Positions 7,568 to 47,192 of a stretch of 55,782 nucleotides of DNA are shown in pieces. The DNA is from a virus (taxonomy: Duplodnaviria; Caudoviricetes). The notes beneath the pieces are model-generated. The model saw only the letters and a list, made by a program, of their open reading frames with translations. It made no database searches and was not told the DNA's origin. A program made the position numbers and the translations under genes. Each line of letters begins with the position of its first letter. The stretch's first letter is position 1. The stretch spans positions 1 to 55,782 of the IMG/VR virus record IMGVR_UViG_3300031788_000021. One strand, written 5' to 3'.

Positions 7568-10500
7568 GTGGCGGACCTGTTCGGACGCTGGCGCGCGCGC
7601 CTGGCCCTCGGGGGAGACCCCGGGGGTCAGGCCGCGCCGTTGCCCAGCGCCACAAATAATCCTGATGGGTTAGCCGAACCAGAGTCTCCGAGCGCATGGA
7701 GCGGGTATGGAGACATAGGGTGGATCGGCCCGAGCGGGAATTACTACCACATCAATTACTTGACGGAGCACATGGTGTGGCTCCGCTCCCAGGGAATAAA
7801 AAAACCGGATGGTTGGGTCCGCGTCGTCTCCGCTCCGGGGGTGTCCGAACTCGGACTTGACGTAAAGGGAGAAGGTGAGCCCAATGCCAACCAATGGGCG
7901 ACGATGGAGGAGTCGGTCAGGGAGTGCGGTGAAGACGCGGAGGTCTGGGTCGAGTATCCCAGCCGGTTCGCAAAATTTGTGGCCGGAGATTTTACGGACT
8001 CGGGAAAGACCCTGAAGGATTTCTGCTCTGGCGCTGTCAAATCGGACAAGGGTCTGGGCATATTGGAGCGCTTGGCCGCGCCGTCGTTTGAGGACGGCCT
8101 AACCGCCGCGACCCGCGAACTCGTGGTCCAAGTTCTTATGGAGAACGGCGACCAGATGCTCCAGGGCGCTCTTTACGACAAGGTCGCTGCCGACCTCGTT
8201 CGGGTCTGGTCCTCCACGGGGCGTCCCCCGATAAGTTTCGAGAGCGCCAAAATCTACGCCCAGTCCGCAGTCGACATGCTATTCGAGGTCCACCGCATCG
8301 ACCGAGAGGGAGAACCCGGGACCGAGGGCATGGTCTACCTCCAGTCTGATTTGCAGATGCTCGCGGATCAGATATACGGCATGATCTATTGGAACAAGGA
8401 CCCGATGACGCTGGAGCAGATCACCGCCGCGATGAAGGACTCCGTGAGGCGGGGCCGGACTCCGCAGGCGTACGATAACCAGCAGATAGACGGCGCCATA
8501 AACTCGGCCCTGAACTACCTGATAGACGACGAGCACCGGGTGAAGGTCACGGAGCACGGCTTCGTGGCCGCAGATGCACCGAAGATCACGGTCGACGAGG
8601 CCCAGAAGGGAGAGTTCCAGCCGAAGCCAGGATCGACGCCGGTTCAGGACGTGCTCCGGAAGACGAAGTTCGTCGACCCCGAGAAGGAAAAAAATCGGCT
8701 GCTCGACGAGTTCTCGCAGGGCAAGATCACGAGAGAGGTCCTCGACCAGAAGATGCGGCAGCTTCAGGCGTCTTTCCGCGATCGCTGGCTGCGCCGCGCC
8801 GAGAACCCGTTCCAGAGCCTGGACGACCTGAAGACGATGAAGCAGATGCAGCAGGCTGGCTGGGGCCTGTTCGTATCTGGCGGCGCCTACTTCGTCATCG
8901 AGCCCGGGCAGTCGCAGCCCCGCCGGGTCTCGGTCAAGGAACTGCGGAGCATCATGCAGAGCTTCCGCTCCGCGCCCTCGGGTCCGGCGGGCGACGACTA
9001 CGCCACGGGCTACGCCCTGGGCAAGGCCTACACCGACGGCTGGTCGATGAGTGACATCTTCAACCTCGACCCGATGGAGACCCTAGAGATGGCGGGCCAC
9101 ATGTTCGCCGTCTGCGAGAAGGGTGAGCCGGGCGCGAGGCTGATGCCAGCCGAAGGCGAGGGCGGCAAGGTCGTCAAGCAGTGGTTGAAACCGCACCCCA
9201 TCGGCGTGTCCTACTCCCAGGCCAAGGACAAGAAGTCGTTCGAGCGCGGGTTCCGCGCGGGCTGGGCTGCCGGAGAGACCAAAGAGGACAAGGCCTACCG
9301 TAAGCACCAGAAGCAGCCTAAGACCAAGAAGCCAGCGCCCGCTCCGCAGCCCAAGGAGAAGGTCAACCCCGAAGACCCCTTCTGCGCTGGCTTCAACCCG
9401 ACCAAGGAGTACGTCGACGTAGACGAGGGCGTCGAGGAGGGCCAGCCCGGTTACCGGAAGCCCGTCTCCTACTGCATCTGCGGCCACGCCCCATCCAGCC
9501 ACGAGGGCTGGACTCCGGAGTGGAAGCCGGGGATGCCCCTGGGCGGCTGCCAGTCCTGCGGCACGATCGGGGATGAGGAGGGCGACGACGGCTTCAGCGA
9601 GGCCTCGCTCAAGTCCCGCTGGTTCCGCCGCGCTTCTTCCAACAGCAATCTTGGGAAGTGGTTCAAGATCACCGGAGAACTCCGGGTCTGGGCGCGGGTC
9701 CCCAAGGACCGGGATGAGAAGGTCCCGACCATCGTCCTCCCCGTGGGTACGGAAGTTATGGTCATGCTGAAGGCCGAGATGCAACTTGGCCACCTCATGG
9801 CCATGTGGATTAGTTGGCCGAATCAAAAGGTTGAAGGAGTCGACCCAGGAGACGGCGAGGGCGTCGTCCGCTGCGAGGATTTCTACCGCGCTGCGGTGCC
9901 CATAGACAACTCTGCCAATTACCAGGGCCTGGTGGTCAAGAGCATCGAGTGGAAGAACTCGGACAAGACCCTGGGCTACGCCAGGTGGGGGACGAAGCGC
10001 GTCAGTGGTGGCGTGGCCTTCGCCATCGACGCCGGTGGCTCAGTCGTTTTCCTTGAAAGTCTGGACGATCCCGAGTCGGTGATCGCCGACTTCCAGCCTG
10101 AGGAGCTGCGCGCTCCCCTGACCGAGGCGATTCAGGCCGAGACGTTGCCCAAGGGCGAGCGCCCGGGCCAGATGAGGACCACGGACGTCCCCGTCGTCGA
10201 CCCCGAGCGGGAGAAGAACCGGCTGCTCGACGAATTCTCGACGGGGAAGATCACGCGCGAGGACCTCGACCGGAAGATCAGGATGCTGGAGGCGTCGTTC
10301 AGAGCCCGGTGGTTCCGGCGCGCTGTGAAGAAGATGGATCGATCGCCATCGGTATTCGTCTTCGGCGACAATGGCTGGATCATGCCAGATGGAAAGTTTT
10401 ATGCCCTCATGGAAGAGGAGGTTCATGAAGATTTCCTTGTAAAAAATAAGCTGAAGCCAGAGGGGCTGGTTCGGGTGTCGACCTTGGCGATTCAGAATAT

Positions 10501-13500
10501 CATGCTGAATGCCGAGGATCAGCTTAACCTAAATTTCAAGGGTGAGGGCACGGTTGAACAGTGGTCAGCGGCAACGAACATGGTTATGTCCGTTGGAGAA
10601 AAAGATGGGGTGGTCGTGGAGGGCCCTGGGTTCGGAGACGTATTCTACAGAAAAGAATTTGAGGAGTCGGGCCAGACTCTTCGAGACCAAGTAACCGGCA
10701 GAGATCGATCCGCTTCGTTTAAGTCCAAGTGGTTCGAGCGCCGGGCCGACATCGAGACCCGGATTCCGATCCTGATAAAGCAGTTCTTCCCCGACGCCGA
10801 TCCGAAGCGGGCCGAGGCCCGCATCCGCGAACTCGCGGCCATCGACCCCACCGGGAAGCAGGGCAAGTACTTGACCTGGCTCCTGAAGAACGAGGTCGAT
10901 CCCGGGACCGGGACCGCCGAGGACCTGCGCGACCTCCTCGCCGTCTACGACAAGGCCAAGTCCAAGGCCAAGTTCCCGGCTCAGTACCGGGACATCAACA
11001 GGATTCTCCCCCAGGACCTGAAGAAGATCGTGGACGAGCACGGGGCGGTTTTGTCCCAGCGCGAACTCGAACTCGCGGGTCAGAAGGTCGTCCGCGACGA
11101 TCACGACTGGAAGATCACGGAGATCACGAGCCCGGCCTCGGCCTCGGCGCTGCTCAAGGGCCGGGACTGGTGCGTCAAGGACCCCAGGTTCTCGGAGCAA
11201 TACCTGGCCGACGGGCCCCTCTACCTCGTCGAGGACAAGTCCGATGGCGAGGATTACCTGATCCACCCCGGACGCGGGGAGGTCAAGGACGAGGAGAACA
11301 ATACCCCGGTCTTGCAGGCTCCGAGGCTCAAGCTGAGCCTAGGTGACGACCCGCACGTGGGCCGCGCGATCGAGCATATGGAGGTCGACGTCGAGGACAT
11401 CCTGCGCGGTATGGGCGACGGCGACTACGAGGCCTCGGACATACCGACGAACGAACTGGACACCGCGCTCGGCCTCTGCATGGAAGAATACGAGTCATAT
11501 GGATACCTCATCTGGAATGTCGTTAGCGAGATGAAGGAGCGCGACATCTCAAGTCTGATCTCGCAGTATATGTGGGCGCGCGGCACCGCTCCAGGGCAGA
11601 AACGTAAAGGGGAACCGAATCAAGCCCAAGAGGACCTGATCCAGGCTCTGCCCATTGAAGAATTCAGCGAGGCCGTCCTGGCCTCGGGCAACGCCAAGCT
11701 CATGGCGGAATTCGCGGTCAAAATCCTGAACAGCCGCTGGCCCCAGGCCGAGCCCAAGATTATGGCCAACGAAGACGCCCGGATAGCGTACACGGACAGG
11801 TTCCCAGAGGAAGAGGCCCTGGTCCCCATGTACCGGCAGCCTCCTCCGGGGGCGCCGAAGCCGGAGCCGACGGAACCCGCAGCCCGCGAGACCGAGGAAC
11901 AGACAGAGGAGTTGCCCTTGGTCGACGCCCCGAAGCCTGGGCCCGGCGAGCCCGGGCACGTGTGGGAGCGGTCGATGCAGGTGCTCAAGGACGACCTGGA
12001 GCAGGGTCAGACCGACCCCGAGAGATACGAGACCAAGCGCCGCCAGATCATGTTCAGGCCCTGGAAGCTGCGGATGAAGGACTACGTCGACCCCGCTTCC
12101 CTGAGCCGGGAGAAGCTGGAGAACACCGAGCCCGAGGCCCTGGAGGAGTACCTGAAGCAGAACAAGGACGACCTCGCGCCCTGGTACAAGAACCTCCCCT
12201 ACGGGTCCAAGTCCGAGTTCACGGCCAGGCTCTTCGGGCGCTGGCTCCGCCGCGCCGCCGCCGACGAGCCCGAGGACGCCCCGGAGTTGACGACCGAGCA
12301 GAAGGTCCAGGCCCTGCTCTACGAGATCGCGCGCGACAACGAGGTCGCGGGCTGGATTCCCGACCCGGACGAACTGATCCGCGAGGTCACGAACTTCCTA
12401 GCCAATGAGGCTGGGGTCGACTACGATCAGGTTGACCGCAAGTGGGTCGAGGGCATGGTCGCCAAACTGGAGTACCCCGGTTGGCGCGCCTACCCCGACC
12501 CCAAGGCCGACCTGCCGCCCGGGATCAAGCTCAACTCCTTCCGAGACCGTTGGCTCCGTCGCGCCAGTGTCACTCCTGAAGGCAAGTGCCCCGCGTGCCA
12601 CAAGGCTCCCGGGCCCGGACGCTGCGAGCAGTGCACTGCCGAGAACAGGTTCCCGCACAATAGCGATGGTCGGATCGAGGTTGTCGAAGATGAGGGTATG
12701 GGCACTGTCAAGGCCATAGTCTGCGACTGGTGCGGGAAGAACTTAGCCTACTTCGACAAGGATACCCCGGACAGGGAGTGCGTTGGCTACTGCACTGAGT
12801 GCAATGATAACCCAGAGGTCCAGGCTGCCTGTGATGCGCTCCTCGCCGGACTCGGTATGGAGATGACTCCGGAGGGTCTCATGCAGGGAGAGCCCGTGGA
12901 GGACACGAGGATGATGGTGTCCGACGTCCCTTCCATGTCATCGGCGGATAAAAACAATGCCCTTAACAAACTCTTGGACCAGCATGAGAAGGCGGACCCC
13001 GAGACGAAGAAGATGCTGGAAGTGAAGATGCGGGAGTTGATGGGGAGTCGCTCTTGCTGGCTCCGCCGGTCCGCTCGGGCCAAGGCCCTGGTCCTCGACC
13101 CCCAGGTCTCGGTGGATCAGGAATTGATGGACCAGTACCTGGCCGTGGTCAAGAAGATGATCGATCATCCGGAGTCGGCGCAGGTCATCGAGAGTCAGAG
13201 GGTGGACCTCCACAACCGCCTGCGCGAGGACGCGCGGGTGCGGTTGCTGCGCAGGACCAGGGCCGAGGACACGGACCCGGGGTGGGACGACGACGTCTTC
13301 TTCCCCGTGGTGGAGAAGTTCGTGGAGGGCGTGCTCGGCTCTGAGGACTTCAACCGCTTCCTACAGGTATGGGATACGGCGAGCGAGCTGCGCGAGACCC
13401 GTCGCGCCTCCGACGCTTCGGTGCCCACCCCCTCCTCCAACCCCGATCACGATATAGCGCTCTACAACCTCCAGGACTCCGAGATTGAGCCGCTGCCCAA

Positions 13501-16500
13501 GCAGATTTGGGACGGGTACGAGCAGGCCAACTACCTCGGGATCGCGCTTGAGTGCTCCGGCGACATCTTCCGCGAACTCGTGGGCTGGAACGTCTGCGAG
13601 GGCTACGTCGGGGAGAAGACGCGGCGGATCAGGGTCTACTGGGACCGGCTGTTCCGACCGATAGAGCCCGAGGCTGAGGCCCTCTGCAAGCAGCTGGTCG
13701 CGCTGTGGTCGGGGATGGACTTGAACGGGAAGAGCCCGAGGCTGCTGGCGGTTCGGGCCCTGAACGTCGCGCTCGCGGCCCACGACAAGGCCGGGGCTGA
13801 AGCGGCGCTGAGTCAGGTCGAGGCCGGGAAGAAGAAGGCCTACTTCCGTAATCGCTGGCTCCGGTGCTTGGCCAAGGTATCTGATAATATCGGGGACGGG
13901 CTCGAATGGAGGCCCTCGAAAAAATGGCCCCCCAAGCCAGGTGACAGATACTTCTTCGAGTACCACTGCGAGGAGAGCGAGGGGTCGGCTGACGCTGAGT
14001 TGTGGCACCGCACACACCAGCCAGTTGAGGTCCTGGCAGTAGACGAGCCCAGTACCCCCGAGGGTGAGGCAGACGGAATCTTTGGCGCCTACACGATCAA
14101 GTTCCTGGATGGTTTTGAGGGATGCGCTGTCGGGGACGAACTCCTTGACTCCCCTGAACAATACGTCCGGCCCGATTATCGATCATCCCGCCGCGCCTCC
14201 TCGTCCAAGCGCAAGAAGTCCAAGAAGGGCACCGAGACCTTCAATGGCTTGGAGATCGCGATCGAGTTCTACCCCGGAGACCAGAAGACCTGCGACAGCG
14301 GCGACGTCGTGGACTATGATGACTTCTACGGCGAGGTCAAGGGCACGCAGACGATAGCCGACGGCGAGCCCGTCGACGTCTACCTGGCCGAGGACGCCCA
14401 CGGCAACGACGATCGCCCGGTCTTCGTCATCCACCAGCTGAAGAAGGACAAGTCCTACGACGAGGACAAGGTCATGCTCGGCTTCGTTGATGAGGCTGCG
14501 GCCATGAAGTGCTACGAGACCTCGGGTCCGCCCTGGGGCTTCGGGAGCCTCGATACCATGACCTGGGACCAGTTCCTCAACGGCTACCTCAAGAGTCACC
14601 AGTCCGCAGAGGACATGGGCGCCAAGTCCATGCCCGAGATCAAGGCCAGGTGGATGGCGCGCCGCGCCAGCAACAACGAGCAGAAACTGCTCAGGGAACT
14701 CGTCTGCACCGTGATCGGCTCCGACTCCATGACGGTCAACGAAGCCGTGCTCCCGGCGGGAACCGTCGTCGGCGTGCAGCCCCAGAGCAACGACCACACC
14801 ATCTTCTTCTACAGCCCACTCTACTCTCGGATGATCGAGCACGGAAAGACGTGGCGCAGCAACCAGTATGCCGCAAGCGTCGAGGATTTCCGCGCGGCCA
14901 CGGACATCGGGTACGGCGAGGGCACGGGCTACGAGCATGGCCCCGAGTGCTTCTGCGACGAGTGCATGGCGAAGGACGACCTCTTCACCCATCGCTGCCC
15001 GAGCTGCGGCAGCCGGGAGTGCCCAGGGGACGGCGACACCATCGACTGCCGCAAGCCCGGGACGATGACCCCGGAGGACGTCCCGGTGGAGACCCGCGAC
15101 AGCCTGCTCGACCGCTTCAACCGTGGTGAGATCGACGAGAAGGAGCTGCGCCGCCGCATGAAGCAGATTTCCATCCTTGTTCGGTGGATGCGGCGGCGCG
15201 CCAATGGCGAAACCTGGCGCTGCACTAGCTGCGATTTTGAGACTAATTCAGACGGATGGGCACAAGAGCACGCGGAGGAAACTGGTCACAGTATAGTTAG
15301 TCAGGGCAGGAAAGAGGAGACCCAACAAGATCATCTGGCGGGCCAGATATTATTTGCAGTCGAGCGCGACCTATCCCGTAACGGTCCCATGAAAGAGAGC
15401 GTCCTCAAGGCGGAGATGATGCGCCCCTGGGATGGTGTCGATAAAGAATTTTTTGATCTAGTTTTCAATAAGGCTCTGGCGATCCTTAATAAGTCTGGGA
15501 AGATTGAATTTAATCCATCGACCGACTCCTGGCAGATCAAGGGGGAGGTCCCGATCGCGAGTCTCCCTGAGTCCCCATCTGAGGTCCCGACTTTTAAGGG
15601 GCGTCAGCGGGAGATCGTGATCGACAAGCTGCTCGACCGCTGGAGCAAGGAACCCGGCGCACGCCCGCAGATCGAAGAGCAGTTGAGATCGTTGCGGGCG
15701 TTTAAGGCCTTATTCATGATGCGGCGCCGGGCCGTCGCCGACTACGAACTCCGGGTTGAACTCTGGTGCGGTCACAACGAGAATCTGCCCGTGGCGCGCG
15801 AGCGCTACCGTAAGGCCAAGGCCGTGGCTGACCAGTTTGGAGTTAGGTTCTGGTCCGAGGAGCACGATGAGGACAGGGACAACGTCTACGCCGACGGCTA
15901 CATCTACCCGACGACCAGGAATATCTTGGACGTCCTGTCCGCCTTGGATGCGGTTGGGGTCGAGTACGACAATGTCGATCTCCCGCAGGAACTTGAAGGG
16001 TCGACGATATACCGGGCGGTACGGGGCGCGATGCCCCGGAGTGTCGACGTCAACATCGGTACGATTCCAGCACGGATGGCGTCCTCCCGCGATCGGTGGA
16101 TGCGGCGCCGCGCTTCCCCCCTGGACGACCCCTCCAAGGACGTCAACGTCGACGGCTACATGCTGCGCCCCGAGGAGATGTCCGAGCCCTACTGGATCAA
16201 CGCCTGGATCAGCCCCAGTGGGAAGTTCTGCCCTATGGTCGGCATCAACCACGAGGACTTCATCGTCGAGCGCACAATCAGCGAGTTGATCGCCGAGGGC
16301 TGGATCAGGTTCGTGGCCGCAGAGTCCGGGACCGCGATCATCGACACGATCGCGGAGCCGACGTCGGCGCAGATGCCGGTGGTCGAGGCCCTGTTCTTCA
16401 TGTCCCCGGTCAAGACCCTAGAGATGGGGGTCGGCGATGACGAGGACTGGGGCTCGTTCTCGACCGTGTCCAAGATCACGGAGAACGATTTGAATGGCGG

Positions 16501-18685: not shown

Positions 18686-18981
18686 AGAGAGACTTGATGA
18701 TGATCGGATTCTCATTGCTGGCTGGGGCTTTCGGTGGATACTGTACCTGCCTCGCGCGTTTCCGCATCGTGGGAGCGCTGCTCGTCCTCGCGGGTAAGGC
18801 CGAGGCCAGGATCGACTCCGGGATCAAGGCCGAGGAGGCCAAGATCGAGGCGGATGCCGCCAAGGTCAAGGCCGACGTCGACTCTGCCCTGGGACGGACC
18901 GCCGTTCAGGTGGCCGAAGCCGTGGCCCCGGCCCAGCCCGCGCAACCGGCCCAGCCCGTGCAACCACTGGCGGGGCACTAG
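18682..18981 (+). CDS. small membrane protein
   Basis: AAGGAGG RBS, ATGA overlap; hydrophobic N-terminus followed by a coiled coil. Confidence 0.7.
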   Translation: MKRDLMMIGFSLLAGAFGGYCTCLARFRIVGALLVLAGKAEARIDSGIKAEEAKIEADAAKVKADVDSALGRTAVQVAEAVAPAQPAQPAQPVQPLAGH

Positions 18982-18998
18982 TAACTTACATCGATAGG

Positions 18999-19032
18999 GC
19001 CCTCTCCGGGGTCATGGCTCCCCGGGGAGGGC
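18999..19032 (+). other. intergenic GC-rich hairpin without U-tract
   Basis: GCCCTCTCCGGGG / CCCCGGGGAGGGC. Confidence 0.6.
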
Positions 19033-19043
19033 GAGGTGCGATA

Positions 19044-19385
19044 ATGAGTGATGAGGAGCGGGAGGCCGCTGGCACGGCGCCCCAGTCGTCGGAGGACTTC
19101 GTTGCCGGGGCCGTGGACGCGGTCCGGCGCGGGCTGGCTATGGGCCTCGACCAGGAGCGCGCGGTTGAGCACGCCCTGGTCAACTGGAACATGATGTCCC
19201 AGATGCTGCGCGGCGCCGACCTAACCCCGGAGGAGGTGGCCGAGGTCAGGAGTCGGTCCTCCGTGCCCGGGTCTAGTCCGACGCCGCAACAGGCGGCGTT
19301 GTCTAGCGACCTCCTTGAGCAGTACGCCCAGGGCCAGATCACGCAGACGGAGATGGAGCAGAGGATCGCGCGGGGGGCGCCATGA
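19044..19385 (+). CDS. hypothetical protein with C-terminal SHOCT-like helix pair
   Basis: GAGG RBS; DLLEQYAQGQITQTEMEQRI. Confidence 0.7.
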   Translation: MSDEEREAAGTAPQSSEDFVAGAVDAVRRGLAMGLDQERAVEHALVNWNMMSQMLRGADLTPEEVAEVRSRSSVPGSSPTPQQAALSSDLLEQYAQGQITQTEMEQRIARGAP

Positions 19386-19936
19386 TCGACCTCGGGGACC
19401 TGTCCAAGGGCCAGGTTTCCGCCCCGATAGCGGGGCCGACGGCGCTACCCGCGCTCGCCGCGCTCAGGGACCTGGCGCTGGTGGCCCTGGCCCCGCCGGA
19501 GCCCCCGGCAGGAGACGCTCCCAAGGACGAGGCCCCGGCCCAGAAGTCGACCCCGATCCAGACCCCTCCAGGCCTGCCGCTGGCCTACGTCGAGATGAAT
19601 CTCCAGGACCAGCCGGTGCCGCAGCCCCCGACCGAGGAGATGGCCCAAGAACAGAAGAAGCCGCTGGGTCACGAACTGACCCCTGGGGTGGCCACCATGT
19701 GCCACAGGGAGTGCATCTCCTACCGCCCCGGTACTGAAGTGCGGCTCACGCAGGAGCGGATCGACCAGGGTCCGCACGTGTTCGTCAGCAGGGCTCAAAG
19801 GGACGCGCACGATCGAGGGCAACATGAAGAGGAAGAGTCCAGGGCCCCGCAAGGCCCGACGCTCGCGCACCCGGACACGCTCCGGGCCGGTACCTACGTC
19901 AAGGGAGAATCCGTCCCCTACAGACCAGGAGCCTGA
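19382..19936 (+). CDS. hypothetical protein
   Basis: ATGA coupling; lies directly upstream of terL. Confidence 0.65.
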   Translation: MIDLGDLSKGQVSAPIAGPTALPALAALRDLALVALAPPEPPAGDAPKDEAPAQKSTPIQTPPGLPLAYVEMNLQDQPVPQPPTEEMAQEQKKPLGHELTPGVATMCHRECISYRPGTEVRLTQERIDQGPHVFVSRAQRDAHDRGQHEEEESRAPQGPTLAHPDTLRAGTYVKGESVPYRPGA

Positions 19937-19945
19937 GGAATTCAC

Positions 19946-21634
19946 GTGGATACACCAGCACAGGGAGGAGTTCTGGACGGCGAAGAAGAACCGATAGTCT
20001 TCAGCATGGCAGACGCCTTCTCCTCGCTGATGGACGTCCCCATCCGCGAGGTTGAGGCCGACCGCCACGAGGGGGACGTCCTCGCGCCTTCTGTCTCCGC
20101 CCGCTCCTTCGTCGACCCCCAGGGATTCACCAAGTACTATTTTAATCAGACCCTGTGCTCGAACCAGGTCGACATCGTCGGGGCCCTGACCTCCGACGCC
20201 AGGACCTCGATCACGGTCGAACCTCGACAAGTAGGTAAAACCAGTTCGGTCGCGGTTGCTTGCTCGATCCTGTGCGAGACCGAGGGCTTGGAGTGGAACA
20301 AGGACCATCCCGAATCCTACCGCATCGGCATCTTCGCGCCGAAGGCGGCGCAGGCGCAGCTGGACACGGACAGGATCAAGTCCTGGGCGCGATACACGAA
20401 GCAGGGCCGGGCCCTGATCAACTGGGAGGAGTCGACGAACGATAGGATCGTCTGGCACAACGGATCAGAGATCAGGATTTACTCCGCGTCTGAGCAGGCC
20501 GAGAACGACGGCAAGACCCTGAACCGGATCATCCTGGAAGAGGCGCAGAAGATCAGCGACGTCGTCGTGAGCCAGTCGATCCTGCCCATGGGCGGAGCGG
20601 TCGCGGCGAAGATCGCCAAGATCGGGACCGTGCGCCCGATCCGCAACCACTTCTTCAACTCGTGGCACAACGACGCGAAGGCCTTGAAGACCTGGCACCA
20701 CTGGCTGATCTGCGATAACCTCCTGCGCGGCGGCTTCCGCGAGTACGGTGGCCGCAAGATCAGCCAGTACGTCCTCGATATGATGCCCCTGGCCGAGAAG
20801 GAAAAGTACATCCGCGCGGGAATCTTCCCCCAGAACCCCGACTTCTACTACCCCGGTCAGCAGGAACTCAACGACTTCCTGACCCAGTACGAACTCCGGT
20901 GGCTGGAGCAGTTCGGCCTCTTCCTGGATGGTCGGGAGAAGGCGATCCTCTTCAGCGGGTTCACCCCGTTCCAGGATTCTCAGAAGTCTATGGAGGAGGA
21001 GATATACGCGGGCATCGACTTCGCGACCGGGGTCGGGGCCGACGAGACCGCTGTTTCGGTCTGGCGCCGCCGGGGAGCGGTCCTGACCAAGATATGGGGC
21101 TGTTCCTGGTCGGACATGCCCGCGCCAGATCAGAAGCGGGAGCTGCTCAACCTCTTCTGCAAGCGGGGCCCGTTCTACGGAGTGCGACTGGGCCTCGGCG
21201 ACTTCGGCGGCAACGGTGCCGCCATCATCCCGGAGCTGGCCGAGGCCGGGCTCCCGTTCCAGAGCATCAGCTTTGGCTCCAACGACAAGAACATCGTCGG
21301 GGCCTCGATGAACATGAAGACGTCGATGTTCCTCGACTTCAAGCGCCAGCTCCAGATGGGGTGGCTGCGCTACCCCGTCATGGACTCGTCGACGCCGATC
21401 GAGTTGCAGATGGACTATCAGAAGGGCGTCCGGCAGTGGACGGCCCTGGAGCAGGAGATCATCGGCTTCGGTATCAACCGCCGCATCCAATCCCCAGACT
21501 CGGATCACGACGACCTGTGCTGTGCCGACATTTTAGCAGTGCGCGCGGCCAAGATCGGACCGCAGCCCCTGGGCCAGCGCCGGTCCACGATCGGGCCGAT
21601 GCCATACTTCATCGTCAGGAGCCAGTTCCGATGA
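19946..21634 (+). CDS. terL: terminase large subunit
   Basis: Walker A EPRQVGKT, Walker B IILEEAQ, KIGT coupling motif, RNase H-like nuclease AGIDFA..DETA ... DHDDLCCAD. Confidence 0.92.
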   Translation: MDTPAQGGVLDGEEEPIVFSMADAFSSLMDVPIREVEADRHEGDVLAPSVSARSFVDPQGFTKYYFNQTLCSNQVDIVGALTSDARTSITVEPRQVGKTSSVAVACSILCETEGLEWNKDHPESYRIGIFAPKAAQAQLDTDRIKSWARYTKQGRALINWEESTNDRIVWHNGSEIRIYSASEQAENDGKTLNRIILEEAQKISDVVVSQSILPMGGAVAAKIAKIGTVRPIRNHFFNSWHNDAKALKTWHHWLICDNLLRGGFREYGGRKISQYVLDMMPLAEKEKYIRAGIFPQNPDFYYPGQQELNDFLTQYELRWLEQFGLFLDGREKAILFSGFTPFQDSQKSMEEEIYAGIDFATGVGADETAVSVWRRRGAVLTKIWGCSWSDMPAPDQKRELLNLFCKRGPFYGVRLGLGDFGGNGAAIIPELAEAGLPFQSISFGSNDKNIVGASMNMKTSMFLDFKRQLQMGWLRYPVMDSSTPIELQMDYQKGVRQWTALEQEIIGFGINRRIQSPDSDHDDLCCADILAVRAAKIGPQPLGQRRSTIGPMPYFIVRSQFR

Positions 21635-21846
21635 GCACGGCGGACTACAGCATCACGTTCGACCACCCGCTCATGGGCACCAACCAGTGGGTTCTGGGGA
21701 ACGGCACCATCGGAGTAGATCAAAGCCCTGGGCGAGGCTTCACCGTGACCTACACCTATCCCGGAGGCCATTTTTCTGTGGTCCCGGATCGGAATCGTCA
21801 TGCCCCCGCCCGCGACCCGCTGCTGACTGAGGTCTGGGCCGACTAA
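21631..21846 (+). CDS. hypothetical protein
   Basis: ATGA overlap with the terL stop. Confidence 0.55.
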   Translation: MSTADYSITFDHPLMGTNQWVLGNGTIGVDQSPGRGFTVTYTYPGGHFSVVPDRNRHAPARDPLLTEVWAD

Positions 21847-21920
21847 GAATATATGGTTATACCTGGTAAAACAAACTACCTAACGACCCTAGTCAACACC
21901 AGGACCATCGCTGGCGAGTA

Positions 21921-21949
21921 TTGCAATTTCACGAGAATCCTGCTATTAA
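21921..21949 (+). promoter_or_regulatory. possible sigma70-type promoter
   Basis: TTGCAA-17bp-TATTAA with a TG extension, in an AT-rich intergenic stretch. Confidence 0.4.
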
Positions 21950-21950
21950 T

Positions 21951-22148
21951 ATGACAAGGCCATGGGACTCAATCGAGAAGGTTGAGCGCGCGTTCTATGA
22001 ATTCAATAGAGGTCAGGACGCCCGGAAGGCCAACGCCAAACTCCCTGCCAAGGGTTTTTTTGATAAGTGCATGACCGAGTTGACCAAGATCACTCCGACG
22101 GAGAAGGCGGCCCTGGCCCGGTGGCTGTGTTCCAGGATGAGGGGATAG
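21951..22148 (+). CDS. hypothetical protein
   Basis: short ORF; start uncertain. Confidence 0.5.
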   Translation: MTRPWDSIEKVERAFYEFNRGQDARKANAKLPAKGFFDKCMTELTKITPTEKAALARWLCSRMRG

Positions 22149-22151
22149 CCC

Positions 22152-22553
22152 ATGGGCCCACACGGTCAGCCGGAAGAACCGTCGGGGTTCCAGAGGGAGG
22201 TCCTGGTATTCATGGGAGAGATCAAGGGCCGCCTCACCAGCGTCGAGAAGGGCGTCGTCGACATCGGCGAGGAGAACTCGGTCCAGACCAAAGCCCTAGG
22301 GAAGCTCGAAGAGCAGTTCCATGGGAGGATGCGCAAGATCGAGCACACGGTCTTCGGCAACGAGGAGACGGGGAAGATCGGCCTGGCCGAGAAGGTGCGC
22401 TTCCTCGAAAGCGGCTGGGTCAAGCTCACGACCGGGGCCGTCCTCATCCTCACGATCTTGGTAGAAATTCTGAAGGCGGGGGGATCGTGGGCAGCGCATT
22501 ATGTGGCCTCCCTGCTGAGCAAAGGGGCGATCAACCCGCCCGTACATCCGTAA
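22152..22553 (+). CDS. coiled-coil protein with C-terminal TM segment (holin-like topology)
   Basis: heptad-rich N-terminus followed by WVKLTTGAVLILTILVEIL. Confidence 0.6.
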   Translation: MGPHGQPEEPSGFQREVLVFMGEIKGRLTSVEKGVVDIGEENSVQTKALGKLEEQFHGRMRKIEHTVFGNEETGKIGLAEKVRFLESGWVKLTTGAVLILTILVEILKAGGSWAAHYVASLLSKGAINPPVHP

Positions 22554-22569
22554 CGGAGGTATAGAAAAA

Positions 22570-22908
22570 ATGACAGACCCGACAACCACGGCCCCTCAAG
22601 GAGCCGCCACGACCCCGGCTGAAGCCCCGGTCCAGACCCAAGCCGACCCGGCGATCACCGCAGCCCCTGCGGCTGTGACCCCGGCCCCGGTGGCGCCCCC
22701 GGCAGCGGCCCCGGCGGCGGCCCCGACTCCAGAGGACCAGGCCATGGCCAAGCAGCAGGAGGCCCAGCAGGCCCTGCTCAAGGTCCGCAAGGACAAAGAG
22801 GACGCCTGCGCCAGGGAGATTCAGCAGGTGTGTGCCAAGCACGGCTGCGAGCTGATCGTCGGCCATCAGGTGAAGGTCAGCCTCGTGGGCGCGAACGGGA
22901 ACAGATGA
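22570..22908 (+). CDS. hypothetical Ala/Pro-rich protein
   Basis: GGAGG RBS upstream. Confidence 0.7.
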   Translation: MTDPTTTAPQGAATTPAEAPVQTQADPAITAAPAAVTPAPVAPPAAAPAAAPTPEDQAMAKQQEAQQALLKVRKDKEDACAREIQQVCAKHGCELIVGHQVKVSLVGANGNR

Positions 22909-22916
22909 TCTGCATC

Positions 22917-22943
22917 CCCCGGGGGCGCTCGGCGCCCCCGGGG
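22917..22943 (+). other. intergenic GC-rich hairpin without U-tract
   Basis: CCCCGGGGGCGC-TCG-GCGCCCCCGGGG. Confidence 0.65.
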
Positions 22944-22965
22944 AATCTGCGAGGAGGAGGAACCG

Positions 22966-23394
22966 GTGGCAGGAAAGGATGATCTCGGGGAAGCATTTGC
23001 GAGGCTCGCCTCCGTCCCCACCCAGCCCCCGATGACCAGGGGCGAGTGGGTCGACAACTTCCAGACCATCTCCCTGCACGGCCTCACGGTCGCGACCCCA
23101 GGAGTCGACGCCGAGTCCTTGGACCTGCGAGTTCGAGTCGCCAGGATCGGCAGCTTCTGGTTCCGGGACGAGGAGTGCCACGTCTACGCCATGGAGCAGG
23201 CCCTGCTGGAGATGATCAAGACCAGGGAGCGCTTGCAGGACCGCGACTTCTCGGTCGTGACCCCGATCTGGGTGTTCTACCGGTGCGGGAACAGGGCCAA
23301 GATCATGGCGAACCCCGAGGCCCTGGCCGTGGCGAATCGGAACTTCCTCCGCTTCTTCGACGAGGCGTACGCGAGGCATAAAACCAATGGCTGA
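22966..23394 (+). CDS. hypothetical protein
   Basis: GAGGAGGA RBS before GTG. Confidence 0.75.
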   Translation: MAGKDDLGEAFARLASVPTQPPMTRGEWVDNFQTISLHGLTVATPGVDAESLDLRVRVARIGSFWFRDEECHVYAMEQALLEMIKTRERLQDRDFSVVTPIWVFYRCGNRAKIMANPEALAVANRNFLRFFDEAYARHKTNG

Positions 23395-23854
23395 AATAAC
23401 CCCCAGCGGGATCATCGTCACCGGAGCCCCGACCGACGTCAAGGCCTCCGCCGTCGTGCCTGGGACCCGAGAGGTCCTGGAGAACATCTACAACGACTTC
23501 CTCGACGCCAAGCAGAAGGGCGATCTTTCCCTGGAGTGCACGTTCGACACCTGGATCAGGAACTCGATCGACATGCTCAAGAATCACCGGGCCCGGGAGA
23601 TTCAGGAGCAGCACGTCATGGGCCAGATCGGCAGGGCCGAATTCGAGGCCCTCGACGAGTACCGGAAGAAGCTGGTGGCGGTGCTGGAGAAGTGCGATCC
23701 CCGAACCTGGGGCTTCGACCAGTACGGAATCCAGTACATCCAGCAGAGCGAGCGCTACCTCTTCAAGGAGAAGGTGGGGCGCAACGACGTGGTCGTGCCC
23801 GACAACCGGCCAGTCCACATCAGCACCGGCAACGAGCGCGGGATCATCAGGTGA
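23387..23854 (+). CDS. hypothetical protein
   Basis: GAGG RBS; typical codon usage. Confidence 0.75.
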   Translation: MAEITPSGIIVTGAPTDVKASAVVPGTREVLENIYNDFLDAKQKGDLSLECTFDTWIRNSIDMLKNHRAREIQEQHVMGQIGRAEFEALDEYRKKLVAVLEKCDPRTWGFDQYGIQYIQQSERYLFKEKVGRNDVVVPDNRPVHISTGNERGIIR

Positions 23855-23857
23855 CCG

Positions 23858-26800
23858 ATGCCGACCGATTTCTCGTTCGTCAAGCCCGAGGGTTGGGAGA
23901 TGATGAAGCCCGACTTCGAGAAGGCGGAGAAGAAGTGGCTGGAGAAGGTCAAGAAGAAGGAGATCGATCAGGCGACGGCGGACAAGATCGTGAAGCTGAT
24001 GTGGGACAAGTACGACCGATGGTCAAAGGGTAAGGGCCTGAAGAAGAAAGAGGACCAGACAATGATACAGAGGCACGAGAAGCCTAAGCACAAGGAAGAG
24101 CGCCAGGCCATGGTCCGTGAGGCCAGGATAGGCCGGACTCAACTGGTGGACATCCTCAATGCGATCACTAATGGGACGGTAGACAATCCCAATGCCTTCG
24201 CTTATACCCTGCAACTCAATCAGATTGCCGATGCCGAGTTTTTCGACATGTTCTCCAGCGATGTCCAGACTTACCCCCAACTTTACCCAGATTCCTTGGT
24301 AAGCTATTTCCAGAATTTATTCAAGGAATGGGGTTTTGGCCCTGGCCTTGACAACTTGAAGAAGACGGCCATGAACAGGCAAGCTCGGGTCAACAGGCAG
24401 CAACTGGTTGAAATTCTGAACATGATAACCGGAGGCAATGGTCCGATATGGAATTCGGAAGATTTCCCTCGGGTTCTGGAGCAGAAGAGAATAAGCGAGG
24501 ACGAGTTCTTCAACATTTTCGCCGAGGACGTAAAATCATTTCCCAATCTGTATCCCCGCCATTTCATTAACTATTTTCAGGACTTGTTCGAGGATTGGGG
24601 TTACGGTCCTGAAATGGAGCGCGTGAGAAAAGCCTATCGAGGGAACAACGGACCGAAACCTAACCCAATACCTTCCGGTGGTCCTGGGCGGGCCCCAGCT
24701 CAGGCCCCAGCTCAGGCCCCAGCTCAGGCCCCAGCTCAGGCCCCAGCTCAGGCCCCAGCCGCCGGTCCCGGGCAGGTCCCCGAGGCCCCGGCCCCCGGGC
24801 AGTACCCGACCGAGCCCCAGCCGTGGCCGCAGGGGATGGAGCCTCCGCGCAGCGCCCAGGGCCCGGTCTTCCGCTACTACGTCCTGTTCCGGATGCCGGG
24901 TGAGCAGCAGCAGCGCGCGGCGATCGCCGAGGGCGTGAGCCAGGCCGACATGGGCGCGTGGCTGAACAAGCAGCAGGCGGCCAAGGTCCAGTTCTTCCAG
25001 GCCAAGCAACTGAGCGGGGGCCAGGCGACCCCGGTTCCCGGACCGGGCGTCGCCGCCAAGGTCCCGATCAAGGTTCCGGTATCGATTCCTGCTGGAGGTG
25101 AGTCCGAGACTTCAAGTGGTATGATCGAGACTTCAAGTGGTATGATCGAGACTCCAAACCCAATGGACCCCAAGAGATATCTTTGGGGTATGAAGTTTAA
25201 GACGAAATCGGGGCATATCGGCGTGATCCCAAACCCGGCACGTCCAGATGTAAGGGCCCCGAATATGACCGGAACCGAGATGATACATCTCATGGAATGG
25301 TATGAGAAGGCGGGTTTGCCCATCATCGAGCTACACAAGACTGGTCCGGGTGTCGAGGCCAGGATAGGGGATGACATTATGGTTCGCATGGCTCAATCGG
25401 AGACTCCTGAAGACAAGTTCAAGTCCGGGACCCCCGTGATCTTCACCGACGACGTCAACCTTGAGTTCTCGTCCCTCTCCGCTCGGGGGCCGGTCAAGAA
25501 GAACATGACCGGGCGCGTCAAGAAGGTCGACGACCAGAACTACACCATCGACATCGCCGGGCAGATGTACCTCGTCCCCAAGATCGTGGCGGAGTCGGTC
25601 ATGTCCGAGTTCAAGCCCGAGGTCGTGGTCGACGAGGGCGACTTGGAGGGCGGGCAGCAGGAAGCACCCGCACCTTCGCCCGAGGCCGCCGCCGCCGCTC
25701 CCGAAGCTGCTCCGGAGCCCCAGGATCAGGTGGAGATCGAGGAGCAGCCCCAGGCCCCGCAGGCCCCGGCGCCGGTGGGCGGCGCCCCCAAGACCGACCT
25801 GTCCAAGGCCCCGAAGCCGCAGGCCAAGCCCCAGCCAGTGGCGAGCGTGGATGACGGGAGTATCGTGGTTCTGGCCTCCGAGCTAGAGGACGGATCGATC
25901 ACCAGCTTCGCCAGCACCTACGAGGAGCGCCCCGACCTCGGCGACATCACAGGCGCCCTCAGGGGCATGGTCGTCGTCGCAGCGTCGATGACCAACCGCG
26001 ACGTCGCCAAAGCCTTCGCTAGGGGCGGGGAAAAGGCCAGGTCCAAGCACATGTTCATCGACGGAGACACCGTCTACTCCTACGGCACGCACTTCCCGAT
26101 CGCGACCAGAGCCGATGACGGCACCATCTACTTCACGAGCAAGAGCTACAGTGCCTCGACTTCGGTGCACAAGAGCCTGGTCCGGAAGGAGCTGTCGATC
26201 AAGGGACTCACCATTCAGGAGTCCTCCGTGACCCTGGGCGACAAGGTCGGGCCGCCGAACCCCGAGGACAAGGCCATGCAGGACAAGCGCGACGCCTCGG
26301 AGCAGCGCCGCCAGGAGCGCCGCCAGAAGCGGCAGGTCGGCAGGCCCTCGGAACCGGTGGCGGAGGAGTCCTACGCCCCGGGTCCGACCGCGCCCCAGAC
26401 CGGCAAGGACGCGATCCCGGGTATGGGCCCGCTCATGAAGAGGCACACGGTCCCGGCGCCGCGCAAGGAGGAACCCTCCTACTTCAACATGGAGAAGGAG
26501 GTCCCGACGATGAAGCCCGGTCAGCAGCAGATCGTCCTGGATCGCCTGCTTGATCAGCTCTCCCAGGAGTCCGACCCCGAGAAGCGGAAGCAGATCGAGG
26601 AGAGGATCAGGTCGGTGCAAGCCTCGATCAGGGCGATGATGCTCCGGCGCGCCGAACTCATCGGGATCGATGGGCTTGAGCAGGAGGTCGCGGACAGGAC
26701 CAAGGAGAAGTTCCATATCAAGGACGACGACGGCCCCATCAAGAACTTGCCGGTGAGCGAACCCTTCTCGCGGCAGAACACGAAGCCGCTCAACACCGCC

Positions 26801-26923: not shown

Positions 26924-26954
26924 AGGCCAAGGGCTCAAGCCCTCGGAGGTAGTT

Positions 26955-44495: not shown

Positions 44496-44726
44496 ATGAG
44501 CATGATCAAGCAAGGAGCACCGAAGGAGTCAAAGGTACTGGGCTTCGATCCGGCGGCGGGCTGGGTCGACCCCAAGTCCAAGGCCCAGCCTATGATCCCA
44601 GAACTGAACGTCTCGTGCCCGAACTGCCGCGTCCTGGCCCAGGCCAGCGCCGACGGCACCGTCTTCTGCCCGAAGTGCGGGATGATCATAAATCCCAGCA
44701 GCACCAACGAGAGGAAACCCCTATGA
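44496..44726 (+). CDS. small Zn-ribbon protein
   Basis: CPNC ... CPKCG. Confidence 0.7.
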   Translation: MSMIKQGAPKESKVLGFDPAAGWVDPKSKAQPMIPELNVSCPNCRVLAQASADGTVFCPKCGMIINPSSTNERKPL

Positions 44727-47179: not shown

Positions 47180-47192
47180 GAGGGAGGAGCAG

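Follow-up and report, generated by a model that had tools for sequence, protein, structure and literature searches.

What is the role of a helical hairpin that recurs within a large phage polyprotein and reappears in a second gene of the same virus? The question is raised by the 55,782-nt stretch of DNA analysed here (the window), which is a contig of an uncultured large phage and whose features described below all lie on the + strand. The first carrier, P0001 (7568..18685), is a polyvalent polyprotein of the head-cargo type, with 3705 aa and about 18 modules as delineated from its ORF, translation, Pfam and a linker HMM. Its modules are joined by basic Trp linkers (18 matches to the linker HMM), a linker-like peptide stands at both protein ends, and Pfam places an InPase domain (PF18823) at aa 2218-2336 (E=8.8e-20). 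Three contigs, the longest of 159 kb, carry an identical protein, and 9 polyproteins are homologous to it. The second carrier, P0002 (23858..26923), is a 1021-aa head-block protein identified by its ORF and an exact peptide match.

Both genes lie in the head/packaging block, where the order is polyprotein, TerL, tagged 1021-aa protein, portal, protease, scaffold-like protein and MCP. The large terminase (19946..21634; phrog_2, E=1.5e-14) is 32% identical to phage G gp1 and the major capsid protein (50841..51752; phrog_2522, E=6e-82) is 61% identical to gp27 of Bacillus phage G. The head maturation protease at 44615..46858 (phrog_18299) is interrupted by an intein, as its intein domains indicate, and matches the gp19 region of phage G at 39-42% identity; it is the candidate enzyme for processing. 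The Lys/Glu/Ala-rich product of 47178..50147 would be the scaffold, judging from its position and composition. Its C-terminus QLGSLWRVPPTPKAEA resembles a linker and the tail is kept in the G001 homologue (QLNSMWKVPPTAKA) at an overall identity of 57%, and despite this W-basic tail the hairpin is absent from it (best A6 profile score 3.0 bits). In the case of contig G001 the gene order is identical to that of the window, and contig G002 carries the polyprotein together with a 996-aa tagged frame, a homologue of P0002. Tagged proteins are thus found in the head/packaging block in 3 of the 3 contigs with visible context, most other matches being on contigs of 1-20 kb, many of them fragmentary. 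A scan at E<=0.1 of four phages whose capsid proteins are related, phage G among them, gave the element in 0 of 4 records; it is therefore not generally required by this capsid type.

The eight peptides quoted in an earlier, sequence-only reading were all located by exact string search, each within 2 nt of its reported place, seven in the polyprotein gene and one in the P0002 gene. That reading had placed the hairpin directly before linkers, and indeed every copy is followed 0-3 residues on by a linker, either of type S-h-x-x-x-W-h-R-R-A or degenerate. It had also seen [DE]VP ahead of most copies, which is the case in 6 of 8, the other two having EMP and VDP. Copies 1 (8606..8809, core 8690-8764) and 2 (10139..10333, peptide at 10214) are of the GKIT subtype, precede the linkers QASFRDRWLRRA and EASFRARWFRRA, score 52.4 and 56.2 bits with the A6 profile and share 78% DNA identity across 136 nt (repeat family D4). 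Copy 3 (12878..13081, peptide at 12962; 68.4 bits) is of the DPE subtype with the linker GSRSCWLRRSA. Copy 4 (15047..15208, peptide at 15095; 37.4 bits), of the GEID subtype with the linker SILVRWMRRRA, follows a Zn-ribbon module, and the element stands behind this same module in 10 of 10 polyproteins. Copy 5 (15527..15739, peptide at 15620; RPQIEEQ subtype) scores 69.2 bits with the profile and has the degenerate linker RAFKALFMMRRRA, while copy 6 (17387..17599, peptide at 17471; DEEKRQIEQ subtype) scores 76.4 bits and precedes RASLKSAWLRSAA. The two highest profile scores belong to copy 7 (18137..18349, peptide at 18227; DPEKREQIEN subtype, linker MGFRSLWFRRA, 86.0 bits) and to copy 8 in P0002 (26453..26659, peptide at 26537; linker QASIRAMMLRRA, 82.8 bits), which is followed by an 89-aa tail; a 34-nt stretch is 88% identical between these two (D8).

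An HMM of the eight copies was run against the six-frame translation (1059 pieces, 97,238 aa) and gave 9 matches that reached 8 bits or more, and every one was in the frame of one of the two genes. Among 20 residue shuffles, 19 runs gave 0 matches and one run gave 1. Leave-one-out scores ranged from 8.7 to 45.0 bits and reached at least 25 bits in 7 of 8 cases. Profile matches also revealed a ninth, truncated copy at 16712..16795 (12.6 bits with the hairpin HMM, 19.0 bits with the A6 profile), which consists of helix 2 and the linker GALRALWRVRVAA only; because the close relative P0004 has a full hairpin at the same spot, we regard it as a deletion scar. The block of P0001/P0004 identity at this spot begins at APEK, inside the turn. 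The C-terminus of a further ORF, called 19044 earlier and having its first ATG at 19014 (19014-19385), had been described as a related segment. This is so in a weak sense: the possibly related segment (19260..19367; C-terminal end SSDLLEQYAQGQITQTEMEQRIARGAP) scores 8-12 bits and matches DUF1707 at E=0.003-0.006, under the cut-off. All of the homologous polyproteins (9 of 9) were matched by the eight-copy HMM, with 37 copies in total, each immediately preceding a linker or degenerate linker.

The element measures about 55-75 aa, exceeding the earlier description, with a conserved leader in front and helix 2 running on into the linker. The leader is extended, acidic and Pro-containing ([DE]-[VI]-P-x-M-x-P, often with A-P-E-[ST] ahead). 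Helix 1 (R-Q-x-K-[IL]-D-x-L-L-D-Q-[YLF]) and a tight turn (x-E-x-D-P) are followed by a long, amphipathic helix 2 (x-[KR]-x-Q-[IL]-E-x-x-h-[RK]-S-L-x-A-S) and straight after it by the basic linker (x3-6-W-h-[KR]-[KR]-A). The element is acidic in its N-terminal half and basic in its C-terminal half. Conservation, counted on 90 representatives with less than 70% identity, covers the core (D33 76/90, L35 83/90, L36 87/90, D37 79/90) and extends outside D-x-L-L-D to L58 (82/88), P21 (59/87), M23 (53/87) and Q50 (61/89). The conserved polar residues, and a leader that is conserved without being helical, suggest a binding surface and not a mere spacer. The helix-turn-helix claimed earlier was borne out by an AlphaFold2 model of the copy 7 sequence (31 sequences), which has helices at residues 25-41 and 44-73, a pLDDT of 88-95 over residues 31-60 and a mean of 76.1. 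Since its second helix runs to residue 73, helix 2 extends through the linker. When copy 4 was modelled with its Zn-ribbon module, the hairpin (helices 142-150 and 156-177) was the best-predicted part, with a pLDDT of about 75 vs a mean of 43.

In a profile search of 1,835,955,588 representative proteins, 66 matched at E<=1e-3 and 32 at <=1e-10, and 116 elements of at least 20 bits were counted across 69 of the 70 proteins examined. The element is a real, conserved and unnamed sequence family confined to a few dozen phage proteins, and no family in Pfam, PHROGs or the PDB claims it. One variant had been called SHOCT-like. The GKIT/GEID subtypes do share the look L-L-[DE]-x-F-x-x-G-x-I-[TD] of SHOCT (PF09851) and the SHOCT-like DUF1707 (PF08044), which are, like the element, short two-helix motifs and often C-terminal. 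Membership in SHOCT was not supported: a match came from 1 of 10 segments, and its best score of 13.3 bits falls short of the cut-off, 27. DUF1707 matched the tail of ORF 19014 only (17.9 bits, cut-off 27.6), the majority subtype D-P-E-K-x-Q-I-E is without SHOCT signal, and neither family appears among the best 25 of the 43 families matched by 31 extended elements at E<=1. What sets the element apart from SHOCT and DUF1707 is its conserved leader and its continuation into the linker.

In the earlier reading, cleavage after RRA would leave the hairpin at the C-terminus of each released module. By position, 99 copies are internal, 10 C-terminal and 7 N-terminal. True C-terminal copies occur on long contigs in P0042 (158 kb), P0049 (58.7 kb) and P0030 (44.7 kb), with natural ends such as RSLGWLKQ and GLGGWLKK in the related phages of the 158 kb and 58.7 kb contigs. 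Because natural proteins end in the element, it makes sense to think of a C-terminal handle on released modules, which would however not by itself explain the true N-terminal copies of P0033, a protein present on 8 contigs of at most 16.5 kb. A second protein, P0199 (341 aa; contigs up to 13.8 kb), probably has an N-terminal copy as well, as read in its cluster-mate P0037. Additionally, one upstream domain family bears different hairpin subtypes in different phages, which indicates that the element is an independent tag. Independence from the neighbouring domain and from position fits an address or docking tag.

The hairpin precedes 8 of the 18 linker-HMM matches in P0001, and in 10 polyproteins it accompanies 25 of the 75 linkers that score 4 bits or more; with about a third tagged, it is not needed at every joint. 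ORF 29291-30598 has a hairpin-less linker (TRLGQRWFRRKS, 30395..30433), and the hairpin is present at 450-505 in its presumed homologue P0028, with which it shares the tail motif DKGVEQQIIQMEKE. For loading, a single tag on each polyprotein ought to be enough, a point against a loading handle.

The tagged proteins themselves suggest what the element may serve. Phage polyvalent proteins, as described by Iyer, Burroughs, Anand, de Souza, Aravind 2017 (PMC5512222), are likewise very large and multi-domain and include InPase, as does P0001, whose relatives carry ART-PolyVal and nucleotidyltransferase domains; they are encoded beside head/packaging genes, as P0001 is, and predicted to be packed and injected. 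Domain release is proposed there via built-in zincin-type peptidase domains, whereas Pfam found no peptidase domain in the P0001 chain. Unlike the polyvalent proteins presented there, P0001 is punctuated by a repeated linker and hairpin, and the word 'linker' has 0 occurrences in the main text of that paper. Besides ART-PolyVal and nucleotidyltransferase, tagged proteins have thymidylate kinase, 2H phosphoesterase/Acb1-like, SLT lysozyme-like and, in one protein (P0032), EncFtn-like domains. In PMC5512222 and PMC9503650 such domains are described as polyvalent effectors that are carried in the virion, injected, and encoded next to head genes.

The element probably serves the loading or processing of enzymes in the virus head, judging from sequence. 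Tentatively, and with somewhat less than even confidence, we favour a handle for capsid loading or retention that is coupled to a processing joint. The hairpin would be the core of a self-contained tag on head-packed proteins, both effector polyproteins of the polyvalent type and some proteins with a single domain. As the procapsid assembles, the tag would dock the cargo chain onto an internal head component, for which the options we infer are the inner shell surface, the scaffold-like protein and other head proteins with a tag, such as ORF 23858-26923. The head maturation protease would then cut the linker adjoining the tag, so that modules might end up trapped in the head as separate proteins and exit with the DNA. 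Packaging, cleavage and its site are inferred in the same way as docking and its partner. Several tags per polyprotein would provide multivalent anchoring and hairpin-less linkers would be plain joints. A point on the other side is that SHOCT, the named motif that comes nearest, is itself of unknown function according to the abstract of the SHOCT paper.

Known loading systems offer partial parallels to such a handle. The scaffolding protein of P22 has a coat-binding helix-turn-helix at its C-terminus, and the element is similar in that it, too, is small, has a basic helix after the turn and can stand at the terminus of a protein that would have to enter the procapsid. The analogy drawn earlier does not extend to homology, as no sequence or fold match was found among PDB chains. 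Unlike the P22 motif, the element is also internal and N-terminal, and the scaffold-like protein of the window has the W-basic tail in common with the cargo but not the hairpin. In T4, internal proteins and Alt bear a capsid-targeting sequence that is removed by gp21; it has about 10 residues, is N-terminal only and ends L/I-x-E. The likeness would lie in a short address peptide with a head-protease site on packed, injected proteins, and the polyproteins start linker-like after Met. About 10 of 12 of them (10 of the lineage plus P0014 and P0018; sequences read by eye) begin M-x4-7-W-R-x-R-R-A, which is similar to the arrangement in T4, where a short leader for capsid targeting adjoins a protease site. 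The element differs in its 55-75 residues, in occurring at any position and in being without the L/I-x-E motif. Encapsulin cargo-loading peptides are short, unstructured and Gly/hydrophobic; as terminal tags they dock diverse enzymes in an HK97-fold shell, and P0032 has its EncFtn-like domain, but the element has no sequence likeness to them.

The same linkers could be read differently, in that the hairpin would expose the helix end of the linker or offer an exosite for the head maturation protease, with no docking. The leader [DE]VPxM could then be a second cut site, and hairpin and linker could be excised as a small basic peptide. Head proteins of giant phages of the phiKZ/SPN3US type are cut at many sites, and the polyproteins of the window lineage have a linker or degenerate linker after the hairpin. 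A small-residue x-A-[SQFA] step follows R-S-L in 65 of 115 elements, W-basic lies at most 28 aa away in 71 of 115, and the leader is conserved yet non-helical. The P0001 linkers behind DPE-type hairpins score -4.2 to 6.5 bits and most hairpin-less ones 7.9 to 13.0, which suggests that the hairpin compensates for a weak site. However, the three GKIT/GEID-type copies precede strong linkers (12.8-14.7 bits), so that compensation is not general. Moreover, natural proteins start or end with the element, where the far side needs no cut, and two relatives have the hairpin, then QAS, then the next module, without a basic linker. We consider this explanation unlikely.

Hairpins could also pair with each other as four-helix bundles, either cross-linking the polyproteins and the tagged 1021-aa protein into one mass of cargo inside the procapsid or multimerising the released enzymes. 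The hairpin is amphipathic and keeps a hydrophobic stripe (I32, L35, L36, Y39 plus I/L51, L55, L58), several copies occur per chain and in two different head-block genes, and there is weak, sub-threshold likeness to SHOCT/DUF1707. Likeness to the effector-associated adaptor family EAD9 was seen in 2 of the 31 extended elements, with a best E of 0.0029, the lowest family E-value among the best 25 of 43 families. On the other hand, the SHOCT, DUF1707 and EAD9 matches are all under curated cut-offs, and the stripe may be consumed within the hairpin itself. In the case of SHOCT itself, first experiments reportedly gave oligomerisation no support, as stated in the abstract of the SHOCT paper. Such pairing is, in our view, quite improbable.

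A role after ejection would have acidic helix 1 mask basic helix 2 and the linker, which later bind host membrane or nucleic acid, or, alternatively, would have the element single out modules to be unfolded and threaded through the tail. The charge split, which we also count in favour of the loading handle, agrees with this in 8 of 8 window copies (N-terminal half net -5 to 0, C-terminal half +3 to +6), and the tagged domains are enzymes expected to act in the host. Motifs of Trp together with Arg/Lys are also typical of helices that bind interfaces or nucleic acids. We regard this role as very unlikely, given that it offers no ground for tagging just a third of the modules, that neither the tagged 1021-aa protein nor the ORF 29291 family is obviously enzymatic, and that we know of no ejection signals resembling the element.

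Lastly, hairpin and linker might be the boundary of a recombination cassette for module shuffling, homogenised by gene conversion and with little function beyond a tolerated spacer, since P0001 and P0004 have five identity blocks of 80% or more (edges, marked by slashes, include LQAS/FRDRW, RRAA/, /RSCWLRRSA, WMRRRA/ and the hairpin-turn edge /APEK), relatives differ in module order, and DNA repeats of 25-136 nt with 71-88% identity connect copies (D4, D8, D9, D10); this too has little probability, because DNA identity among window copies is modest, the amino-acid pattern is kept across the 90 representatives with D-x-L-L-D near-invariant, single-domain proteins with nothing to shuffle keep the element, and a protein-level function is in any case compatible with a role as recombination joint.

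The recurrent helical hairpin that a sequence-only reading had reported for the window was recovered in place. All eight quoted peptides are present (8/8), with offsets of at most 2 nt, and each of these eight copies runs directly into a linker, as had been described. Its sharing between genes was also borne out: an HMM built from the eight copies matched the six-frame translation nine times at 8 bits or more, always in the frames of two genes, those of the polyprotein P0001 and of the head-block protein P0002. Leave-one-out scores of the eight copies were 8.7-45.0 bits, and the chance control, twenty residue shuffles, produced one match in total. The ninth copy, at 16712-16795, consists of helix 2 only. 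It is a deletion scar, since P0004, a homologous polyprotein of 90-98% identity, has the full hairpin at this place, with the turn of the hairpin as the start of an identity block. Run on the relatives, the same HMM found 37 copies in 9/9 polyproteins, each directly before a linker that may be degenerate. Less remained of the related segment placed at the end of the ‘19044 ORF’ (ORF 19014-19385): this tail bears a weak likeness to the element, and it alone matched DUF1707 (PF08044, SHOCT-like), with 17.9 bits (E=0.0032) against a cut-off of 27.6.

The profile A2 (18 copies of hairpin plus linker) was searched against 1.84 billion protein clusters, each represented by one sequence. This returned 66 proteins at E<=1e-3, 32 of them at E<=1e-10. 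Of 70 proteins inspected for copies, 69 had the element, with 116 copies scoring 20 bits or more. For the conservation counts, elements were aligned to A6, a 74-position profile of the extended element, and thinned to 90 representatives of less than 70% identity. The pattern opens with a leader, D/E-V/I-P-x-M-x-P (P21 in 59/87, M23 in 53/87), and in many copies K-P-S-x-P-[ST]-[DE]-M or A-P-E-[ST] lies a few residues upstream of it. Helix 1 reads R-Q-x-K-[IL]-D-x-L-L-D-Q-[YLF], with D33 in 76, L35 in 83, L36 in 87 and D37 in 79 of 90 representatives. After the turn, E-x-D-P (P45 in 59/90), comes helix 2, [KR]-x-Q-[IL]-E-x-x-h-[RK]-S-L-x-A-S (Q50 in 61/89, L58 in 82/88, A60 in 60/82), which is often followed by W-h-[KR]-[KR]-A (W66 in 41/65). 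The hairpin is thus present as first described, but it belongs to a larger unit of 55-75 residues that includes the leader and in which helix 2 passes into the linker.

Structure prediction agrees with a helical hairpin. AlphaFold2 with 31 sequences (A6) placed helices at residues 25-41 and 44-73, at a mean pLDDT of 76.1 and of 88-95 for residues 31-60; from its predicted extent, helix 2 would run on through the linker with falling confidence. When a Zn-ribbon module was modeled together with its hairpin (nine sequences), the overall pLDDT was 43.2 and the hairpin was the sole well-predicted part, so that this part alone was used. In 8/8 window copies the charge is split: the net charge is -5 to 0 in the N-terminal half, against +3 to +6 in the C-terminal one.

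The SHOCT label (PF09851) that had been attached to some of the copies could not be upheld. The best score was 13.3 bits (E=0.071) against a gathering score of 27 bits, with one of ten segments matching at E<=10, and SHOCT was not among the 25 Pfam families listed out of 43 that matched 31 extended elements at E<=1. SHOCT is a short two-helix motif found mainly at the C-termini of varied proteins; for the element two helices are predicted, and 99 of 116 copies are internal. The function of SHOCT is given as unknown in the part of the SHOCT paper covered here, where first experiments did not support oligomerisation. Among those 25 Pfam families the best E value was 0.0029 and nothing was consistent; the commonest was DUF6800, in 5/31 elements (best E=0.014). 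VbhA fell below the Pfam cut-off in the segment scan, no PHROGs family was matched by more than one of the 31 elements, the 31-sequence profile reached E=0.13 at best in a sequence search of the PDB, and the protein atlas held no usable match. Artificial RecA fusion chains, retrieved from the PDB by the eight-copy profile, were rejected as an artefact of repeated 17-residue matches of about 4 bits that sum up. In neither PDB nor BFVD did Foldseek match the hairpin model at E<=0.001, a helical hairpin being too simple for a decisive fold search.

Known capsid-directed sequences offer likeness rather than kinship. The comparison with P22 scaffold made in the sequence-only reading holds for the general form, since the coat-binding domain is a helix-turn-helix with a basic C-terminal helix, as in the element (+3 to +6), and fails for homology, which was detected neither by sequence nor by fold. 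The capsid-targeting sequence of T4 is N-terminal, comprises about 10 residues and ends in the gp21 site L/I-x-E; the element, in contrast, is 55-75 residues long, mostly internal and without a conserved L/I-x-E site. In the passages covered on polyvalent proteins, SHOCT, the phage G virion, prohead protease and gp27, capsid targeting, Donellivirus and jumbo-phage polyproteins, the element is not described. It falls outside the named families searched.

Grouping the hairpins by the 140 residues upstream showed how they relate to their neighbours. Behind one and the same upstream domain family, as in families 0 and 2, the hairpin subtype differs from phage to phage, whereas the Zn-ribbon module keeps its own subtype in 10/10 polyproteins. 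By position, 99 of the 116 elements lie inside the chain, 10 at the C-terminus and 7 at the N-terminus. As many of the matched proteins are fragmentary, on contigs of only 1-3 kb, contig sizes were checked. True C-terminal copies are those of P0042 (158 kb, ending RSLGWLKQ), P0049 (58.7 kb, ending GGWLKK) and P0030 (44.7 kb), and P0033 (eight contigs, up to 16.5 kb) has a true N-terminal copy. An N-terminal copy is also probable in P0199 (contigs up to 13.8 kb), as seen in its cluster-mate P0037, and P0020, P0027 and P0050 are probably fragments. As far as sequences can tell, the element is an independent, position-free unit.

Regarding the company it keeps, 2H phosphoesterase/Acb1-like domains occur in the tagged proteins P0022, P0025, P0035, P0061 and P0062, an SLT domain in P0061, and an EncFtn/rubrerythrin-like domain, a classic cargo of encapsulin shells, in P0032 (on short contigs) and P0195. 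A Pfam match at E<=1e-4 was obtained for 9 of the 49 tagged proteins scanned, and the majority had none. Tagged genes stand in a head/packaging block in 3/3 contigs with context, namely the window and two related contigs. One of the latter, G002, has a polyprotein and a tagged 996-residue frame; the other, G001, has, in order, a polyprotein, a 1849-residue ORF, a 608-residue ORF with a weak element, the terminase and a protein with a capsid-like C-terminus. Locus searches found two IMG/VR loci with the Zn-ribbon module and two weak IMG/VR loci with alignment A4; A4 retrieved none in metagenome contigs or GTDB genomes, and P0032 and P0022 retrieved no loci. The element had no match at E<=0.1 in the records of phage G and of three further large phages whose capsid proteins are related (0/4). 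As a positive control, the related A2 profile was matched in G001 and G002.

The main carrier in the window, P0001, is a chain of 3705 residues (ORF 7568-18685) whose sole Pfam domain is InPase (PF18823, E=8.8e-20). An identical protein occurs on three contigs, the longest of 159 kb, and nine homologous polyproteins of 2167-3831 residues combine InPase with ART-PolyVal, nucleotidyltransferase or thymidylate kinase domains. P0001 and its relatives resemble polyvalent proteins in having several unrelated effector-type domains per chain (InPase and, in the relatives, PF18760, PF01909 and PF02223) and in their gene neighbourhood, with TerL, portal, protease and MCP in the window and the same order in G001. 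A built-in peptidase domain, which is frequent though not universal in polyvalent proteins, was not found in P0001 at E<=0.1. The InPase family was defined within phage polyvalent proteins, which are described as virion-borne and injected (Iyer et al. 2017, PMC5512222, in the part covered here). The last 561 residues of the polyprotein had no tblastn match in 50,697 phage records. By eye in the translations, a GW[IV]xPxGxxYxxxxxxH...GWVRV domain was seen three times in the polyprotein (about 7700-7840, 10360-10480 and 16130-16260) and once in a separate ORF, 29291-30598.

P0001 is punctuated by a linker with the consensus [AGNSQ]-S-[FL]-[RL]-x-[RA]-W-x-[RQ]-R-A. The linker HMM gave 18 matches, a count that is descriptive and not a test, because the HMM was seeded with 68 windows from the same 10 polyproteins. 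By eye, about 10 of 12 polyproteins (10 of the lineage, P0014 and P0018) start with M-x4-7-W-R-x-R-R-A, and P0001 terminates in FKWLKRAAKEAA. These linker-like ends lie at 7568-7610 and 18640-18685, with similar N-termini in P0005-P0010, P0014 and P0018; every module, terminal ones included, would therefore be flanked by the motif on both sides. Outside the window lineage, G-W-L-K-[KQ]-A stands in place of the basic RWxRRA linker, and a W-basic motif within 28 residues of the element was seen in 36/70 cases there and in 35/45 inside the lineage. Hairpin and linker usually travel together, and they are separable: in P0008 (aa 1572-1611) and P0009 (aa 2767-2806) the hairpin ends in RLQAS and the next module begins at once, with precisely the basic half of the linker, FRxRWxRRA, missing. 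Conversely, the linker of ORF 29291-30598 stands alone, with no hairpin before it, and P0028, presumably its homologue as it has the same tail motif, carries a hairpin there. A further joint-like tail was seen in the 989-residue ORF 47178-50147, which we infer to be scaffold-like from its position between protease and capsid gene and its Lys/Glu/Ala-rich composition. It ends in LQEQLGSLWRVPPTPKAEA, and its homologue in G001 (L011, 57% identity) in QLNSMWKVPPTAKA. This tail (50095-50144) has a conserved S-[LM]-W-[RK]-V-P-P-T and resembles the cargo linkers.

Altogether, these observations fit best with a tag for addressing or docking that is coupled to a joint for processing, and we put it forward tentatively, as a putative role with somewhat less than an even chance of being right. 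It comes close to the ‘docking handle’ proposed in the sequence-only reading. Firstly, the element has a conserved polar surface and a conserved non-helical leader, is independent of its neighbours and can take any position in the chain. Secondly, it is restricted to cargo-type proteins in head gene blocks. Thirdly, it is constantly united with a joint, and such joints are also found at the ends of the chain and at the end of the scaffold-like protein. The T4 capsid-targeting leader, the P22 scaffold hairpin and the cargo peptides of encapsulins follow an analogous logic, and the element is homologous to none of them. The docking tag is weakened by its presence at only about a third of the joints (25/75) and by close capsid relatives that lack it. 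A complex prediction for the capsid protein (36 rows) with hairpin-linker (18 rows), run without controls, gave a score of 0.02 and a mark of 0.32 and is uninformative either way.

The element could instead serve to present the joint to a protease, which we regard as unlikely. In P0001, most bare linkers outscore those that follow DPE-type hairpins; this speaks for a degree of shared function of hairpin and linker and does not discriminate between the readings. That it is a homotypic adaptor, pairing with its own kind, seems a still poorer prospect, and a role after ejection is improbable. Similarly, we give little credence to a mere recombination joint, for which the comparison of P0001 with P0004 nevertheless provides some support. 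Here five identity blocks (>=80%) were found, with edges including LQAS|FRDRW, RRAA|, |RSCWLRRSA and WMRRRA|, and one further edge inside the hairpin turn. Two modules are absent from P0004, and both P0001 linkers flanking them read WMRRRA. In addition, copies share DNA stretches of 25-136 nt with 71-88% identity.

The docking tag can be taken one step further, although this extension is doubtful. The tag of about 60 residues and the W-basic linker would then form a portable unit, N-terminal, internal or C-terminal, that may anchor any enzyme in the growing head of this phage lineage, flag the site of its release by the head protease and let phages build and reshuffle their effector polyproteins through recombination at the tags. 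If true, such a plug-in address system would parallel, in a phage, the cargo-loading peptides of encapsulins and would unite loading, processing and module exchange in one element. To our knowledge, how large phages choose the proteins to be packed into the head and injected has been detailed for very few models (the T4 leader peptide, accessory proteins of P22 and P1). A portable conserved tag on dozens of different enzyme modules would offer a direct experimental handle on cargo choice, help to recognise head cargo among the many giant ORFs that lack an explanation in uncultured large phages, and could be used to bring foreign proteins into phage capsids. Should the docking idea prove wrong, the roughly 116 copies in 69 proteins still make up an unnamed family that is in none of the libraries searched.

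The head block itself lies in a window of 55,782 bases that makes up an entire IMG/VR virus record, with a CheckV completeness of 38% and genes on the + strand. PHROGs identified the large terminase (19946-21634), the portal (39256-42297), a head maturation protease domain (within 44615-46858) and the major capsid protein (50841-51752), all on the + strand. With gp27 of Bacillus phage G, the capsid protein shares 61% identity. A comparison with 87.5 kb of phage G showed counterparts only for the capsid protein, the terminase, the portal and the protease (gp19 region), and no counterpart of the polyprotein was found in its first 45 kb or last 42.5 kb. In P0002 (1021 residues, ORF 23858-26923), a 12-nt tandem repeat, GGCCCCAGCTCA, of about 6-7 units (24679-24774) encodes (APAQ)n, and an SSGMIET duplication lies further on. 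Three inteins with Hint and LAGLIDADG_3 domains enlarge genes of this one structural block: the portal (about aa 89-540), the head protease (about aa 358-625) and ORF 42731-44494 (about aa 104-390). A 521-residue ORF of the block, 34612-36177, has a minimal CRISPR polymerase (mCpol, PF18182, E=1.5e-20)/Cas10 palm domain, possibly a cyclic-nucleotide-related enzyme within the structural region. Finally, a second capsid-like gene was noted, ORF 26889-27950 (353 residues), whose last 60 or so residues match the capsid family phrog_2522 and share 27% identity with the major capsid protein encoded in the window; a 479-residue ORF at the matching place in G001 (L009, 9535-10974, - strand) has the same capsid-like C-terminus.
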